DNA from: a virus
Taxonomy: Duplodnaviria > Heunggongvirae > Uroviricota > Caudoviricetes
Strand: one strand, 5' to 3'
Length of the DNA stretch: 4,921 nucleotides
IMG/VR virus record: IMGVR_UViG_3300029471_000044
Span: 1 to 4,921 of that record
Numbering within the stretch: the stretch's first letter is position 1; the number at the start of each line of letters is the position of its first letter. The notes under the pieces were generated by a model, which made no database searches, was not told the DNA's origin, and was given only the letters and a program-made list of their open reading frames with translations. Of this stretch, positions 1-4,921 are shown one piece after another. Made by a program: the position numbers and the translations under genes.

Positions 1-90
1 GTAGTTTTTTCTGAATTTATCCAGCACCTCCGATACGGAATTGCCGGAACAGCGGCGCGCGTCATCCGCACCATACAGAGGCGCTGGCAT
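1..90 (-). CDS. Hypothetical protein, N-terminal 30 codons only (continues past the left edge)
   Basis: ATG at 90-88 preceded by SD GGAG (complement of 97-100) with 6-nt spacing; open frame to position 1 giving MPAPLYGADDARRCSGNSVSEVLDKFRKNY...; starts 16 nt after the exonuclease stop. Confidence 0.5.
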   Translation of the reverse strand, partial: MPAPLYGADDARRCSGNSVSEVLDKFRKNY

Positions 91-106
91 GGTTTTCTCC
101 TGTTGA

Positions 107-655
107 TTATTTAGCTAACTTTTTCCAGATCGCTGAAACGTATTTGGCTTGGTGAATGGCATCATCAAGCGCGTTGTGGCGAGTTCCTTTGAATGGCATA
201 TCTCGCTTAGGGTCGAATCCTATTACCTTCCCAAGTTCGACGATTGTTCTTACGTCGCGGTCATTCCACCACTGCCACGGAACTGGCTGCCCTGTCAGCG
301 AATAACTGTTTCGGAGAATAACGCAGTCAAATGATGCTCCATTCCCCCAAACCTGAACGAATTTGTGGTTAGCGTTCTTTATGATGAATTCAGATAACCA
401 TGAAAGAGCCGTTGAAAGCTCCTGAGTGTTGCTGGTTAGCGATTTTCTGGCTTCTTCACTCTGTTCCAGCCACCATAAAATCGTTGAAGCGTCAGGACGC
501 GCTCGATATCGCATTGATGATTCAAGCGAGATATTTACCGAGAACTCTTCTCCTGTTTCTCCGGTATTCGGGTCAAAGAATACCGCCCCAATAGAAATAA
601 CTGGCGCGTATGGCCCGTTGCCCATTGTTTCAAGGTCAACCATTAAGTGATTCAT
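107..655 (-). CDS. DEDDh-type 3'-5' exonuclease (DnaQ/RNase T-like fold), phage exonuclease
   Basis: 182-aa ORF. Motif I MVDLETMG (D-x-E) at the N-terminus, motif II VWGNGASFDCVIL (Asp), motif III HNALDDAIHQAKY (His-x4-Asp) near the C-terminus. ATG 655-653 with SD AAGGA 5 nt upstream; stop TAA 107-109. Confidence 0.85.
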   Translation of the reverse strand: MNHLMVDLETMGNGPYAPVISIGAVFFDPNTGETGEEFSVNISLESSMRYRARPDASTILWWLEQSEEARKSLTSNTQELSTALSWLSEFIIKNANHKFVQVWGNGASFDCVILRNSYSLTGQPVPWQWWNDRDVRTIVELGKVIGFDPKRDMPFKGTRHNALDDAIHQAKYVSAIWKKLAK

Positions 656-663
656 GTAAGTCC

Positions 664-1142
664 TTAAATTGCGTGAATAGCGTGACGAGGGAAGGGGAGA
701 GTTACTGGCTCCTCGTCTGGGTAGATAGGTTTGTTATGTTTGTGCCACTCGACATGACATGACTTGCAGAGCCACATCACATCGGTTGGTTTGCTGTAGT
801 CGCAGTGGTGCGCCTGTGGTTTACATTCTGATCCGCAGCACTCACATTGTGGTGGTCGGATTAGCTTACCGTCGCGCAAAAAATTACCCACGATGATGTG
901 GGCTTTTCTTTTCCATGGGTTGCTCTGAATGAACCGCTTTTTGGCTGCGTTACACCGTTCTCTGCCGCGTTCCGATGATTGATATTCTCTCCTTGCTGAT
1001 ACTCGATGTGGCAATCCCGCGCGCTCTTTGTCATATTCAGCCAGGCAAGCCCGGCAAGCGGCAGTTAATCCATCTCTGGATGCTCTTCTGATTTGAAAGT
1101 CCCTTTCTTCCTNNNNNNNNNNNNNNNNNNNCAGATTTTCAT
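664..1142 (-). CDS. HNH endonuclease, interrupted by a 19-N run (1113-1131); start and frame across the gap uncertain
   Basis: ORF-track product 664-1014 carries an HNH-like core (CECCGSECKPQAHHCDYSKPTDVMWLCKSCHVEWHKH: His-His, then LC-x2-CH, flanked by Cys pairs). The same frame stays open with no stop from 1014 up to the N-run (...EERDFQIRRASRDGLTAACRACLAEYDKERAG-). A strong start context, AGGAGC-N5-ATG (ATG 1142-1140), sits just beyond the N-run but is out of frame if the gap is taken as exactly 19 nt. Stop TAA 664-666. Confidence 0.65.
1113..1131. other. Run of 19 N (unknown or masked sequence) inside the HNH gene
   Basis: Directly visible in the sequence. Confidence 1.
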
Positions 1143-1151
1143 ATTCAGCTC

Positions 1152-1625
1152 CTAGAACGGAATATCCGAATCGTCGAAGTTCATAGGTGGTTCGCTGTGA
1201 TTTCCATGCTGCTGAGGTTGCTGTCTTTGTTGATGACCATTATTTCGCTGAGGTGAAGACTGTTCATTGCCTCCTTGCTTGCCACCAAGCATTTGCATGG
1301 TTCCACCAACGCCCACGATGACTTCGGTAGTGAACCTATCCTGTCCGCTTTGATCCTGCCATTTTCTTGTCCGCAATTTTCCTTCAAGATAAACCTCAGA
1401 GCCTTTTCGCAGATATTCGCTGGCAATTTCTGCCAGTTTCCCGCTCATTACCACGCGGTGCCACTCCGTCTGCTCCTTTTGCTCTCCAGTTTGCTTATCA
1501 CGCCATTGTTCTGACGTAGCAACTGTAAGGTTTGCAAATGCCGTTCCTGATGGTGAATATCTGATTTCTGGATCATGCCCAAGGCGACCAATAATGATCA
1601 CCTTATTTACGCCTCTGCTTGCCAT
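1152..1625 (-). CDS. ssb: Single-stranded DNA-binding protein (phage-encoded SSB)
   Basis: 157-aa ORF. N-terminus [23 protein letters not shown] and motifs [58 protein letters not shown] closely match E. coli SSB as I recall it; Gly/Gln-rich linker and acidic tail ending DSDIPF. ATG 1625-1623, stop TAG 1152-1154. Confidence 0.95.
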
Positions 1626-2333
1626 TTATGCCGCCTGTTTTAGCTCGTTAACTCTGATGTTCATTACCTGAACGCATTTAGCCTGCGCCTCCTCGTTTCC
1701 AGCCATTAATTGCCAGTCATGCTGATAACGCTCGATGAGTTTTTTCTTGTCAGTTTCTGTCGCTGCATAATCGCTGAAGTCTTTCAGGATTTGTTCGCAG
1801 TCAACCGATGGAGATTTCTGGTTGGTATTTTCTGGTGATGGTTTGTTATCTGATGCTGGGATTGCCCATCCCGGCAGCGATGGAGGGAGCCAGTAAAATC
1901 CTGTCCCATCCTTCAGTTTTGCCCTGTGCCACCCCTGCTTTTTATCGAGAGATGTTTGTGCGAAACCTTCCTCAAGGTTATACAGATACCGACCGATTCC
2001 CCATTGAACGGCAGCGCGCTTCATTGCGCCGGAACGACCACCTTTGACTGCTTCTACCTGCGTGTTTTCAGCAGCATCCCATTTGGTTACCCATTCGGAA
2101 TCAATCTTTATTGATATGCCGCATTCAACGCCGCCGTTGTTGGGAATATCGCGGTATTCATTGCGCCATCCTGCTTTGCCGCAAACATCGTCCAGGCGTT
2201 TCATGATTGCCCGGTTCGTGACATAAGCCAGCACCATAGCCCACACTTTGCCATCGCGTGTTTTACCGCTTTGCTGTATTCGCCATTCGATATCTTCAGG
2301 GCTGAATGGCTCATCGAATTTGTTCAAATCCAT
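1626..2333 (-). CDS. Single-strand annealing protein (recombinase) of the Rad52 superfamily (Sak/Erf-like)
   Basis: 235-aa ORF. Contains the signature blocks I associate with Rad52-like phage SSAPs: ...AYVTNRAIMKRLDDVCGKAGWRNEY... and ...GAMKRAAVQWGIGRYLYNL.... ATG 2333-2331 with SD GAGGTG 4 nt upstream; stop TAA overlaps the SSB start region. Confidence 0.8.
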   Translation of the reverse strand: MDLNKFDEPFSPEDIEWRIQQSGKTRDGKVWAMVLAYVTNRAIMKRLDDVCGKAGWRNEYRDIPNNGGVECGISIKIDSEWVTKWDAAENTQVEAVKGGRSGAMKRAAVQWGIGRYLYNLEEGFAQTSLDKKQGWHRAKLKDGTGFYWLPPSLPGWAIPASDNKPSPENTNQKSPSVDCEQILKDFSDYAATETDKKKLIERYQHDWQLMAGNEEAQAKCVQVMNIRVNELKQAA

Positions 2334-2341
2334 AATTCACC

Positions 2342-2597
2342 TCAGAATGGACATGGCCCAAGGAAATAACGCTGATTTAATACTTCAGTCTTTGCCGCAT
2401 TCAAAAATACGCGAACACCTTCACGATCTCCCTTCTGGCGATANNNNNNNNNNNNNNNNNNNTGCGTGTACATGCGCCTCTGTAACTTGCTCTCCTTCAC
2501 TGTGGTTGCAAGTGACATGAATATCTCCTTCGTTACCGATTAATTCTTTCATCTGACGAATGAATTCTTCGTCTGAACAGTTATCTGTAAAACTCAT
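2342..2597 (-). CDS. Small hypothetical protein in the kil-like position, interrupted by a 19-N run (2444-2462); true C-terminus uncertain
   Basis: ATG 2597-2595 (alternative GTG 2612) opens MSFTDNCSDEEFIRQMKELIGNEGDIHVTCNHSEGEQVTEAHVHA up to the N-run. Taking the gap literally the frame stops at 2421. A second frame past the gap is open for 33 codons (YRQKGDREGVRVFLNAAKTEVLNQRYFLGPCPF) to TGA 2342-2344, which overlaps the SD of the SSAP gene; this is in frame if the gap is 20 nt. The SD for ATG 2597 is poorly spaced. Confidence 0.4.
2444..2462. other. Run of 19 N (unknown or masked sequence) inside a small CDS
   Basis: Directly visible in the sequence. Confidence 1.
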
Positions 2598-2685
2598 TTC
2601 CTGCGATACCACGGAATGTTGATCGCTGATTTCATCGCTTTATTTGCTTCAAGCCACATTTTGGAATCACCAATAAATCTGGCTA

Positions 2686-2865
2686 TTACTGCTTTGTTTT
2701 GTGCTGCACGAAGCATCTGGTGATTGATGGATATTTCATTGCGCATAACGCCTCCAGTTGTTTCTTTGCTGCTCTGATTAATTGTTTAACTCGGCGTGAT
2801 AATTCAGATTCGTGCGGGTAGAAAGCGGACATGACGCCGCTACCCGCGAGCTGAAAGTGCATCAT
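2686..2865 (-). CDS. Small protein resembling lambda CIII (FtsH-inhibitor/CII-stabilising peptide family), 59 aa
   Basis: ATG ATG at 2865-2860 preceded by a strong SD AAGGAG (complement of 2872-2877) with 6-nt spacing; the ORF-track TTG start at 2916 has no SD. Product MMHFQLAGSGVMSAFYPHESELSRRVKQLIRAAKKQLEAL... parallels lambda CIII as I recall it (AG-x-PV..P-SESLLERITRKLRDGWKRLIDIL): AG, P-x-ES-L, then a basic amphipathic helix. Sits directly upstream of the kil-position ORF and the recombination genes. Confidence 0.6.
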   Translation of the reverse strand: MMHFQLAGSGVMSAFYPHESELSRRVKQLIRAAKKQLEALCAMKYPSITRCFVQHKTKQ

Positions 2866-2948
2866 GGGTAACTCCTTATATTTGATTGCATAACGAAAAT
2901 GCCTCTCGTGAAGCATTATTGGTATGCGGTAAAGCCGCGCTCAGGCGG

Positions 2949-3197
2949 CTACTCTATTTCTTCTTCGAATGATTTTATTAGTCGGTCAATAACATCATCC
3001 GTTTCAATATCATTTCCGTCTGATTGCTTTAATACATCTATTGATTCTGCAGCGGTAAATTCCATCGCTGTGAGAAACTCGACAATTGCACACTCAACGA
3101 CATATCGTTCTTCATCTGTACGACATGAGATAAAAGAGCATTTAATTGCTGTTATTACTTTTTGTTTAAGCTCTGCAGGGTAATCAGTTTTTATCAT
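2949..3197 (-). CDS. Hypothetical strongly acidic small protein (82 aa)
   Basis: ATG 3197-3195 with SD GGAG 6 nt upstream; stop TAG 2949-2951. 20 Asp+Glu against 9 Lys+Arg, with an acidic C-terminus ETDDVIDRLIKSFEEEIE. First gene after the terminator at 3211-3239. Confidence 0.7.
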   Translation of the reverse strand: MIKTDYPAELKQKVITAIKCSFISCRTDEERYVVECAIVEFLTAMEFTAAESIDVLKQSDGNDIETDDVIDRLIKSFEEEIE

Positions 3198-3210
3198 CGT
3201 TTACTCCGTC

Positions 3211-3239
3211 AAAAAAAACTGCCCTCACATTGGAGGGCA
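3211..3239 (-). terminator. Rho-independent terminator on the minus strand
   Basis: Minus-strand RNA: UGCCCUC-CAAUGU-GAGGGCA (7-bp stem 3220-3226/3233-3239, 6-nt loop) followed by G and eight U (complement of the A8 run 3211-3218). Lies between the 156-aa gene and the acidic 82-aa gene. Confidence 0.75.
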
Positions 3240-3300
3240 AAGAAGATTTCCAATAATCAGAACAAGTCGGCTCCTGTTTAGTTACGAGCGACATTGCTCC

Positions 3301-3328
3301 GTGTATTCACTCGTTGGAATGAATACAC
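3301..3328. repeat. Perfect 9-bp inverted repeat GTGTATTCA-N10-TGAATACAC
   Basis: 3301-3309 is the exact reverse complement of 3320-3328; located 15 nt downstream (in transcript sense) of the stop of the 156-aa gene and about 60 nt upstream of the terminator hairpin. Confidence 0.6.
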
Positions 3329-3342
3329 AGTGCTTATTTGTA

Positions 3343-3813
3343 CTAATAAAATACCCAATTTTCTGTTTCTTGGTTGTGTCCAAAGTTATATTCAATATCT
3401 GGTGTTGATGTATCAATATTCTTCATCCCATCAACAAGAGTTGATACAACAGCCAAATCTTGTTTGATTCTCATCAAATGGTATTTCTTCCGGCGCAATA
3501 AACTTTCAATGGCAAGTTTCTTCGTCGGGAACGCAAAAGATCTTTCTGCATTTTTTGCTACTTTCTTAATTGCATATCTATTTCTCCTTTGTTTCCATTC
3601 CTGTAACCACTGATTTGGTGCTGGTTTAAAATTAACAATCCAATGCGCAGGAACCAACCATGCATAATGCTCTGTCTGATGAAAAGCTATATATTGAAGT
3701 GCGAATATTTTTATCCCATCTTCTTCAACTGTCGCCTGGAATCTCCAGAAAACAGGCATTCCCTCATGTTCAGTTTCTGATTCAGGAAAAGGTACGCTCC
3801 ATGATTTTGTCAT
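3343..3813 (-). CDS. Hypothetical protein (156 aa), function unknown
   Basis: Long minus-strand ORF; ATG 3813-3811 lies 3 nt after the stop (TAA 3817-3819) of the upstream gene, suggesting translational coupling. Stop TAA 3343-3345. No motif I can recognise. Confidence 0.75.
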   Translation of the reverse strand: MTKSWSVPFPESETEHEGMPVFWRFQATVEEDGIKIFALQYIAFHQTEHYAWLVPAHWIVNFKPAPNQWLQEWKQRRNRYAIKKVAKNAERSFAFPTKKLAIESLLRRKKYHLMRIKQDLAVVSTLVDGMKNIDTSTPDIEYNFGHNQETENWVFY

Positions 3814-3816
3814 ATA

Positions 3817-4098
3817 TTACTCATCTCCAAGGGCTTTGCTGATTGCTGACTGTGCTTTCGATACTTCATCAGGATAATGGTCATTCCAGTTTTGCTTGTA
3901 TGCCTTGTTTAGCATCGCTTGCAGTGCTTCAAGCAAATCAGGAGCTGCTGCTATCAGTAGCGCATCCTCCCTTTCATTTCTTGTTGCTGCTTCAATGTAT
4001 GTGTCACCAATCGTCACACCATGGAACGTAGTCATCATCTCGTTGACGTTTCTAACCGTGTACTTCCATTTACCAGGCGTACCCTTAAACTCTTTCAT
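3817..4098 (-). CDS. Hypothetical protein (93 aa) with conserved-looking LLIAAAPDLLEAL segment
   Basis: ATG 4098-4096 preceded by AGAGGTGG 3-5 nt upstream; the ORF track begins 2 codons earlier at GTG 4104. Stop TAA 3817-3819. Confidence 0.7.
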   Translation of the reverse strand: MKEFKGTPGKWKYTVRNVNEMMTTFHGVTIGDTYIEAATRNEREDALLIAAAPDLLEALQAMLNKAYKQNWNDHYPDEVSKAQSAISKALGDE

Positions 4099-4137
4099 AT
4101 CCACCTCTGTTGTTTATGCCAAAAATAAAGGCCACCA

Positions 4138-4338
4138 TCAGGCAGCCTTGTTGTTCTGTTTACCAAGTTCTCTGGCAATCATTGCCGTCGTTCGTATTGC
4201 CCATTTATCGACATATTTCCCATCTTCCATTACAGGAAACATTTCTTCAGGCTTAACCATGCATTCCGATTGCAGCTTGCATCCATTGCATCGCTTGAAT
4301 TGTCCACACCATTGATTTTTATCAATAGTCGTAGTCAT
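4138..4338 (-). CDS. Hypothetical small Cys-rich protein (66 aa), possible zinc-ribbon-like C-x5-C-x2-C-x5-C
   Basis: ATG 4338-4336; weak SD (AGGA, 8-nt spacing); Cys at residues 11, 17, 20, 26; stop TGA 4138-4140. Confidence 0.6.
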   Translation of the reverse strand: MTTTIDKNQWCGQFKRCNGCKLQSECMVKPEEMFPVMEDGKYVDKWAIRTTAMIARELGKQNNKAA

Positions 4339-4408
4339 ACGGATAGTCCTGGTATTGTTCCATCACATCCTGAGGATGCTCTTCGAACTCTTCAAATTCT
4401 TCTTCCAT
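4322..4408 (-). CDS. Candidate micro-ORF, 28 aa, extremely acidic (MEEEFEEFEEHPQDVMEQYQDYPYDYDY)
   Basis: ATG 4408-4406 preceded by SD GAGGTG with 4-nt spacing (complement of 4413-4418); stop TGA 4322-4324, overlapping the start of the 66-aa gene by 17 nt in another frame. Below the ORF-track size cutoff, so coding status is unproven. Confidence 0.3.
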   Translation of the reverse strand: MEEEFEEFEEHPQDVMEQYQDYPYDYDY

Positions 4409-4462
4409 ATATCACCTCAAATAAGTTGTTTGCTGCGAAAGTAAATACGCTTAAGTTACCTG

Positions 4463-4600
4463 TTATTTATTCCACCAAGTTCCGTATCTATCTATCCAGT
4501 TACACCAATCATCGACACTCCATTTTGTTGTGTCGCATTTTGGCAACTGGCATGAATATCTACCTTCTTTGTAAAGTCGGCGTTTGACTTTCTTGAGCAT
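4463..4600 (-). CDS. Candidate small protein (45 aa), Cys-containing
   Basis: ATG 4600-4598 preceded by SD GAGGTG with 4-nt spacing (complement of 4605-4610); product MLKKVKRRLYKEGRYSCQLPKCDTTKWSVDDWCNWIDRYGTWWNK; stop TAA 4463-4465. First ORF downstream of the terminator at 4717-4741. Confidence 0.4.
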   Translation of the reverse strand: MLKKVKRRLYKEGRYSCQLPKCDTTKWSVDDWCNWIDRYGTWWNK

Positions 4601-4716
4601 GGCTCACCTCAATCGTAATAAGCTGGAATTGATTTTCCGCGTTGCTTCTGGCGGCCTGAGCAGGTCACACCCATTTCACTGCGTGGCTTGCTGTAATAAA
4701 TTCGGTTAGTTCAGAC

Positions 4717-4741
4717 AATAAAAAACCCACCGAAGCGGGCT
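4717..4741 (-). terminator. Rho-independent terminator on the minus strand, overlapping the stop codon of the upstream partial ORF
   Basis: Minus-strand RNA: AG-CCCGC-UUCG-GUGGG-UU then UUUUAUU; 5-bp core stem (4726-4730/4735-4739, one G-U pair) with a UUCG tetraloop, extendable to 7 bp, followed by a U-tract (complement of AATAAAAAA 4717-4725). Confidence 0.6.
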
Positions 4742-4919
4742 ATGACCATTTTTTATTTGGATTTCGTTGGTGAGCGTGATTAACAACTCTGTGCATTACA
4801 TCCTCATATTTTTCATCTTCAATTTTTTCGACATCGCGAGGAAATGGTGTTGCTAATGCTTTGTCAACTTTATCCATTGGGTCTTCATTAATCTTATATT
4901 CAGGACCGTCATCTATAGC
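4740..4919 (-). CDS. Hypothetical acidic protein, C-terminal 59 codons only (5' end beyond the right edge)
   Basis: Frame open from the window edge to TAG 4740-4742 (...AIDDGPEYKINEDPMDKVDKALATPFPRDVEKIEDEKYEDVMHRVVNHAHQRNPNKKWS); same strand as the rest of the operon, with a terminator straight after its stop. Not in the ORF track because no start codon is inside the window. Confidence 0.45.
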   Translation of the reverse strand, partial: AIDDGPEYKINEDPMDKVDKALATPFPRDVEKIEDEKYEDVMHRVVNHAHQRNPNKKWS

Positions 4920-4921
4920 AT

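Follow-up and report, generated by a model that had tools for sequence, protein, structure and literature searches.

A conserved acidic protein encoded by a single-gene cassette upstream of cIII in a lambdoid early-left operon, and its 'anti-restriction' label

Ocr (T7 gp0.3), ArdA and Arn are small acidic anti-restriction proteins (isoelectric point, pI, about 4) of phages or mobile elements, expressed early, which mimic DNA and plausibly work by occupying DNA-binding surfaces. Ocr and Arn, as T7 gp5.9, AcrIIA4 and Ugi, are small inhibitory decoys. A protein of 82 amino acids (aa), similar to these decoys in size, charge and early expression, is encoded on the minus strand at 2949..3197 of a 4,921-nucleotide stretch of Caudoviricetes DNA (IMG/VR record IMGVR_UViG_3300029471_000044, positions 1 to 4,921; hereafter the window). 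Like Ocr, ArdA and Arn, the 82-aa protein is small, very acidic, phage-encoded, early and devoid of enzymatic motifs; it differs in predicted architecture, being a single compact four-helix bundle, whereas Ocr and ArdA are elongated dimers. In the preferred reading, given a probability of roughly 40%, the protein is a delayed-early, narrow-spectrum inhibitor which acts by charge complementarity on a nucleic-acid-binding protein of the host or of a rival element. It is probably not a general inhibitor of type I restriction of the Ocr/ArdA kind. Both gene and family have already been catalogued, and screened once; new here are the corrected position of the gene, the exact boundaries of the cassette carrying it, the acidity of the whole family, a fold with no characterised relative, and the lack of support for the 'anti-restriction' label.

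The 82-aa open reading frame (ORF) is a genuine protein-coding gene. It runs from ATG to TAG, and a Shine-Dalgarno (SD) motif, GGAG, is found on the same strand at 3204..3207, 6 nt before the ATG, as read from the sequence (ACGGAGTAAACG-ATG). The product (~9.4 kDa) contains 20 acidic (8 D, 12 E) and 9 basic residues (6 K, 3 R), which set its net charge at -11 and its pI at 4.27; the initial annotation described the ORF with the same coordinates and composition. The acidic C-terminal tail pointed out there is found in this protein, most of the charge residing in residues 61-82 (net -7; C-terminus ...SFEEEIE), but the final EEIE is not conserved, and most members of the family end near residue 79. 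The sequence is 100% identical to HK446 gp36 (AFH20664.1; JQ086372 25659..25411), Kapi1_017 and ECP1_057 (KY979108 37454..37702). That the ORF is a functionless or decaying passenger, or a gene called on the wrong strand, is extremely improbable. No phenotype has been reported, the family gene is rare in E. coli (58 of 5426 complete genomes, ~1%, where the PGAP name is 'hypothetical protein'), and the plus strand opposite the gene features an open antisense frame of 94 codons, all of which would fit a spurious ORF. Yet the antisense translation is serine-rich, as expected opposite codons of the GAA/GAT type, whereas the 82-aa protein is conserved down to about 30% identity over 67 clusters, has invariant residues, is preceded by a good SD, and folds confidently once modelled with an alignment.

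The protein matches phrog_14587 over residues 1-82 of 82 (E=2.2e-48), and the same PHROG is matched by all 48 relatives aligned, which are 28-46% identical to the query. Residues A17, C25 and G61 are invariant in the alignment of these 48 sequences, L14, E40, A44, L56, D67 and D71 nearly so. Net charge ranges from -9 to -20 in 47 of the 48 relatives (median -12.5), with one outlier at -3. Ten columns (9, 30, 40, 49, 50, 51, 65, 67, 68 and 71) are acidic in at least 70% of the sequences, and cluster where helix 3 of the predicted structure begins and along its helix 4. The acidity of the family is not due to chance, and a strong net negative charge conserved in homologues is a trait shared with proteins of the Ocr/ArdA type. 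Members of the family contain 2-6 cysteines per ~79 residues.

Structure prediction, proposed in the initial annotation, gives a confident four-helix bundle. The AlphaFold2 model obtained with the 48-sequence alignment has a mean predicted local distance difference test score (pLDDT) of 91.3 and a predicted template modelling score of 0.80, and places helices at residues 7-22, 28-44, 49-57 and 64-81. It replaced a single-sequence model (pLDDT 59), which was not used. The 82-aa product is predicted to be a cytoplasmic four-helix bundle of generic fold, member of a conserved family with no characterised relative. Foldseek retrieved nothing below E=0.5 from the PDB (best match E=0.59), and from BFVD only uncharacterised members of the same family. 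Scans of the protein against Pfam, NCBIfam and PADLOC gave nothing significant, Pfam scans of the 48 relatives gave the same result, and family profile scans revealed neither a catalytic nor a DNA-binding family.

The resemblance to Ocr/ArdA-type mimics suggested in the initial annotation is not borne out by either sequence or fold. The hhalign probability of a relationship to Ocr is 0.35%, none of the known DNA mimics was found among all PDB chains at E<=10 (phmmer, and hmmsearch with the family profile), and fold searches did not single out Ocr, ArdA, Arn, Ral, Im7 or any other solved or viral structure as a specific match. Im7, the immunity protein of colicin E7, is an acidic four-helix inhibitor of a DNase, and resembles the 82-aa protein in size, acidity and architecture. 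A weak single-sequence match links residues 45-78 of the query to residues 8-42 of Im7 (phmmer, E=0.23-0.9), and the lead drew interest also from the presence of an HNH gene in the window. Kinship was rejected, the match being taken as due to chance; it covers half of the protein, is lost when the family profile is used, and is absent from the lists produced by fold searches.

The 82-aa gene had been described as lying in a ral-like position. The true ral gene is located at 4138..4338 on the minus strand, 940 bp upstream, two genes and one terminator away, and encodes a protein of 66 aa (PF11058, E=1.6e-48; phrog_1055, E=1.7e-49). As the operon has its genuine ral farther upstream, the 82-aa gene does not take the place of ral. 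Both are small, early accessory proteins of one operon, but Ral is a separate, basic protein (pI 8.78), and the 82-aa protein is acidic. As correctly noted in the initial annotation, the latter is not recognisably Ral; BLASTP against the Ral of the window gives E=16, and PF11058 is not matched.

These data bear on the hypothesis that the protein is a type I anti-restriction factor, either a DNA mimic with an acidic surface that resembles B-DNA and sequesters EcoKI-like enzymes, in the manner of Ocr and ArdA, or a factor alleviating restriction like Ral. Low pI, family-wide acidity and location in an early operon close to ral are in keeping with it, as are the labels of phrog_14587, annotated 'anti-restriction protein', and of ECP1_057. 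The hypothesis is nonetheless very unlikely. Neither Ral nor Ocr is similar in sequence to the 82-aa protein, solved structures provide no sequence match and no specific fold match, the operon already holds a genuine ral, and the labels do not hold up on inspection. The original GenBank entries (HK446, Kapi1, SeSz-2, 64795_sal3, DS8 and others) read 'hypothetical protein'. Among the matches listed, ECP1_057 ('antirestriction protein ral') is alone among primary records in bearing a functional name, and the label is otherwise found in RefSeq re-annotations (NC_019714, NC_049926, NC_054643 and others) and in recent records; over 20 RefSeq or recent records out of the 45 matches listed say 'anti-restriction protein', and one says 'ral'. 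The Kapi1_017 entry names PHROG as its annotation source. The Kapi1 transcriptome paper (PMC12922286) calls Kapi1_017 a 'putative anti-restriction protein', presumably because the Kapi1 entry draws on PHROG. No paper mentioning phrog_14587 was found in the literature search, and neither GenBank records nor the literature provided an experimental basis for its label. The label is concluded to be a propagated annotation, not evidence, and appears to have spread from ECP1.

The restriction assay envisaged in the initial annotation has in effect been carried out, in pooled form. Silas et al. (bioRxiv 10.1101/2023.04.06.535777) placed 200 accessory genes under an inducible, single-copy locus and expressed them in MG1655 and about 20 ECOR strains. 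The pools were screened both for conditional lethality and for genes that sensitise the host to T2-T7, P1vir and lambda-vir. One of the genes, UDP0194/orf194 (Suppl. File 3 of the preprint), encodes a sequence identical to the 82-aa protein, and the Ral positive control of the same work (UDP0087, from JQ086374) is identical to the 66-aa Ral of the window. When MG1655, which carries EcoKI, was challenged with unmodified lambda-vir, the experimenters' note for each of the three replicates reads 'ardA, ral, ocr are hits' (Suppl. File 4 of the preprint); orf194 is not noted as a hit, and UDP194 is not mentioned in the overview notes of that file. The outcome is taken here from the experimenters' notes on pooled screens, which give neither per-barcode values nor the representation of UDP0194 in each pool, and the screens sample only defences present and unmasked in the strains used. 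Neither the text of the preprint nor that of the Nat Commun 2025 paper (PMC12373910) names orf194 among counter-defence genes or among triggers of cell death, the responses elicited by Ocr and ArdA included. Neither the 82-aa sequence nor the names HK446, ECP1 and Kapi1 were found in the 16 supplementary files of PMC12373910 that were searched. A broad counter-defence role is disfavoured, because orf194 is not reported as a hit in these screens. What remains of the candidacy as anti-restriction factor or DNA mimic put forward in the initial annotation is a real, conserved and undescribed small acidic early protein; the arguments from position and homology fail, and the screen did not record the protein as a hit. 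The more immediate value of the present data is corrective, the 'anti-restriction' label of the databases being unsupported by any experiment found here. Genome-based counts of anti-restriction genes which rely on the label are inflated, as it has no experimental basis that could be found, and the protein is not among the hits of the one functional screen located.

In the preferred reading, the 82-aa protein would be a narrow-spectrum inhibitor acting stoichiometrically, without catalysis. The conserved acidic face formed by helices 3 and 4 (residues 49-51, 65, 67, 68 and 71) would meet a basic surface, probably one binding nucleic acids, on a protein of the host or of a rival element, and block it; the consequence would be narrow-spectrum counter-defence or inhibition of a host factor during takeover. 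Several points weigh against such a role. In the pooled screens, which are the sole functional test found, orf194 is reported neither to sensitise a host nor to set off cell death. The clustering of acidic residues on one surface is deduced from helix periodicity and column conservation rather than from model coordinates. Finally, a simple charge-decoy model leaves the invariant C25 and the cysteine content of the family unaccounted for. Should the protein indeed be an inhibitor of a host or rival factor, a structurally new family would be added to the small acidic phage inhibitors. It may further be imagined that a new family of small acidic helical-bundle inhibitors, common to lambdoid prophages and to ~36-49-kb phages similar to DS8, seszw and SeSz-2, counters a defence or exclusion system absent from, or masked in, the ECOR/T-phage screens, with C25, E40, D67 and D71 forming a binding or metal-bridged interface. 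This extended proposal is rather unlikely; the system countered would be, for example, a prophage-encoded exclusion nuclease or a nucleoid-associated sensor.

The size and distribution of the family were monitored by several searches. A word-index search retrieved near-identical copies only, all in Escherichia. An exhaustive HMMER scan of 1.84 billion protein representatives found 17 family members, and a profile search 67 clusters at 90% identity, called 'hypothetical protein' wherever named, and none with a Pfam domain. By tblastn, the family was detected in 112 phage records. Five of these are identical lambdoid or P22-like copies; the others, at ~40% identity, reside in ~36-49-kb phages of Salmonella, Escherichia, Shigella and Klebsiella, such as DS8 (Deseoctovirus), SeSz-2, 64795_sal3, LPST10 and seszw. 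If the inhibitor reading is true, a family common to temperate lambdoid phages and to unrelated siphophages would point to a widely met target.

All six genomic contexts examined are early or accessory regions. In one contig (L010) the family member follows cI, an N-like gene and a 75-aa gene, with Rad52 further on; in a Pantoea prophage (L003) the order is ERF, SSB, family member, xis, int. In seszw, in contigs L007 and L008 and in DS8, the family member is followed by a gene with a ParB-like nuclease domain, either directly or after one or two short ORFs, and DS8 also carries genes with HNH and beta-clamp domains. In a Citrobacter contig (L011) the family member comes directly after an AAA_25-domain (helicase-like) gene, and in E. 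coli O178:H19 it lies between N and Nmad5 on one side, and a cIII-like ORF and kil on the other. Genes of DNA metabolism adjoin family members in every backbone examined: the lambdoid members are upstream of Rad52-like or ERF recombinases and SSB, those of DS8- and seszw-like phages one to three genes upstream of the ParB-like gene. The protein could on these grounds be an accessory factor internal to the phage, which modulates a phage protein engaged in recombination, replication or a partition-like process, for example by covering its DNA-binding surface until needed; the absence of a reported phenotype in host-defence screens is compatible with such a function. The adjoining genes, however, vary with the backbone (Rad52-like, ERF, RecT, ParB-like), no partner being conserved, and the close lambdoid relatives HK97 and HK022 function without the cassette, so that a phage-internal role is unlikely. 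No partner gene of the family is constant across the six contexts, a result which fits a protein working alone on a target outside the cassette, as supposed in the preferred reading.

Three-way DNA alignment of the window, HK97 and HK446 defines a single-gene cassette of 283 bp at 2927..3209, minus strand. The insert is made up by ACGGAGTAAACG, the 82-aa ORF, and a G+C-rich hairpin (AGCCGC-CTGAGC-GCGGCT, 2933..2950; -10.3 kcal/mol) which overlaps the stop codon, lacks a U tract and makes up the 3' end of the insert. This hairpin is present in HK446 and absent from HK97. In HK97 the U tract of the terminator runs directly into the cIII leader (CATACCAATAA...) and the cassette is missing; in the window and in HK446 the 283 bp sit at exactly this junction. 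The GC content of the cassette is 34.9% (24% at third codon positions), against 44.2% for the window. The cassette is carried by 5 of the 325 phage records matching the flanks, corresponding to HK446, Kapi1 and ECP1, two of which are present as duplicate records; carriage is defined as at least 80% coverage of a 701-bp query which includes the cIII/kil and terminator flanks. The cIII leader (2860..2926, minus strand) includes a hairpin at 2917..2898. It begins precisely where the cassette ends on its 3' side, and its sequence is conserved in HK97 and HK446. No Rfam match was found at E<=1 in the entire window, the leader included, so that the region is not accounted for by a known RNA element.

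The same slot holds other content in H-19B (gp17) and mEpX2 ('Ea10'), and nothing in HK97 and HK022. Lambda Ea10, P22/H-19B gp17 and mEpX2 'Ea10' occupy the same variable slot upstream of cIII/kil, flanked by sequences over 95% identical, and are, like the 82-aa gene, non-essential early-left genes of poorly known function. The functions of most early-left genes are unknown, according to PMC8022706. The contents of the slot are unrelated in sequence, because the phages carrying the analogues match the 701-bp query at the flanks only (two or three pieces, together 45-64% coverage). As the window illustrates, single-gene cassettes are exchanged at this point between the pL terminator and cIII. 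Discrete insertion and atypical base composition are features of lambdoid morons found also in the 82-aa cassette, which differs from them in lacking a promoter of its own and detected expression in the repressed prophage. For these two reasons the gene is regarded as an operon-dependent early accessory gene, and not as a classic moron.

No promoter-like site was found on the minus strand of the window by scanning. In RNA sequencing of Kapi1 lysogens, Kapi1_017, confirmed as the gene identical to the 82-aa gene, cIII and kil were all below the detection threshold, according to the transcriptome paper (PMC12922286). These two results indicate that the 82-aa gene is operon-dependent and delayed-early. 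It would be silent in lysogens, and transcribed only when early-left read-through, presumably by antitermination, passes up to three upstream terminators. The last of these, at 3211..3240 on the minus strand, consists of a hairpin (3240..3219; GCCCTCC-AATGTG-GAGGGC, with an 8-bp stem, 5 G-C pairs and a 6-nt loop) followed by a U8 tract. It lies between the 82-aa gene and an upstream gene encoding a 156-aa protein, and 21 nt separate the hairpin from the ATG of the former; the position of the gene after an internal terminator, noted in the initial annotation, is confirmed. The fold is worth -13.3 kcal/mol in a context of 51 nt, with a modest z-score of -1.5, and the HK97 record annotates the same hairpin sequence as 'terminator, putative'.

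The 156-aa protein (3343..3813, minus strand; phrog_1636) belongs to the HK97 gp45 / 933W L0079 family, has no known function, and is basic. The opposite charges of the two proteins (pI 9.07 versus 4.27) raise the question whether the 82-aa protein is its antidote or immunity partner, in a pair of the toxin-antitoxin or effector-immunity type. The order 156-aa gene, family member recurs on a different backbone in the metagenomic contigs L007 (4516-4986) and L009 (1677-2147), and in L007 a gap of 15 nt only separates the family member from a 156-aa protein gene whose product is 84% identical to that of the window. In the window, however, a terminator is interposed between the two genes, and the divergence from L007 is unequal, 84% identity for the 156-aa protein corresponding to about 42% for the 82-aa family. 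The 156-aa gene is found in 83 phage records (HK97, 933W, many Stx phages), and HK97 lacks the cassette; reciprocally, HK446, Kapi1, seszw, L008 and DS8 carry the 82-aa family without an adjoining 156-aa gene. No PADLOC defence model matches either protein. The pairing is highly improbable, and was rejected as the main reading on the ground that either gene is usually found in the absence of its presumed partner.

All the recognisable genes of the window reside on the minus strand, and correspond to the early-left (pL) operon of a lambdoid prophage. The operon opens with the 3' part of a Nun-like gene (4740..4921; phrog_5632), whose frame is open to base 4921 and runs off the right end, and whose product ends in ...HQRNPNKKWS. 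This gene suggests an HK022-like phage, in which antitermination is possibly RNA-based (put) rather than dependent on N. It is followed by a terminator-like hairpin (4741..4724, minus strand, detected by hairpin scan), a 45-aa ORF on the same strand, ral, and a second terminator-like hairpin (4149..4128, minus strand). A 95-aa ORF of no known function, on the minus strand as well, separates the latter from the 156-aa gene.

Directly downstream of the 82-aa gene are found cIII (2686..2865; PF08134, E=7.7e-30) and next kil (2594..2746; PF06301, E=1.7e-20), both on the minus strand. A 63-aa acidic ORF (2421..2612, minus strand; net charge -9, pI 4.5) comes after kil and matches phrog_2123. The label 'recombinase' given to this PHROG is implausible, as the family is only 52 residues long. 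Two runs of 19 masked bases (N) are found in the window, at 1113..1131, in the gap between the HNH-like ORF and SSB, and at 2444..2462, the latter breaking the 3' part of the 63-aa ORF. The region 107..2333 (minus strand) is a recombination module, made up by a Rad52/22-family annealing protein (235 aa), SSB, an HNH-like protein of 116 aa and an Rv2179c-like 3'-5' exonuclease. HK446 and HK97 carry a different, Erf/Abc2 module, though the cIII-kil segment is common to all. The differing recombination modules illustrate mosaicism directly downstream of cIII-kil. The longest cIII ORF starts at 2916, but translation probably begins at an ATG farther in, at 2865 or 2862, as favoured by the Pfam match and by an AAGGAG SD. 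The start of cIII varies among database records as well, the gene being annotated as 135 nt in HK97 and 186 nt in HK446.

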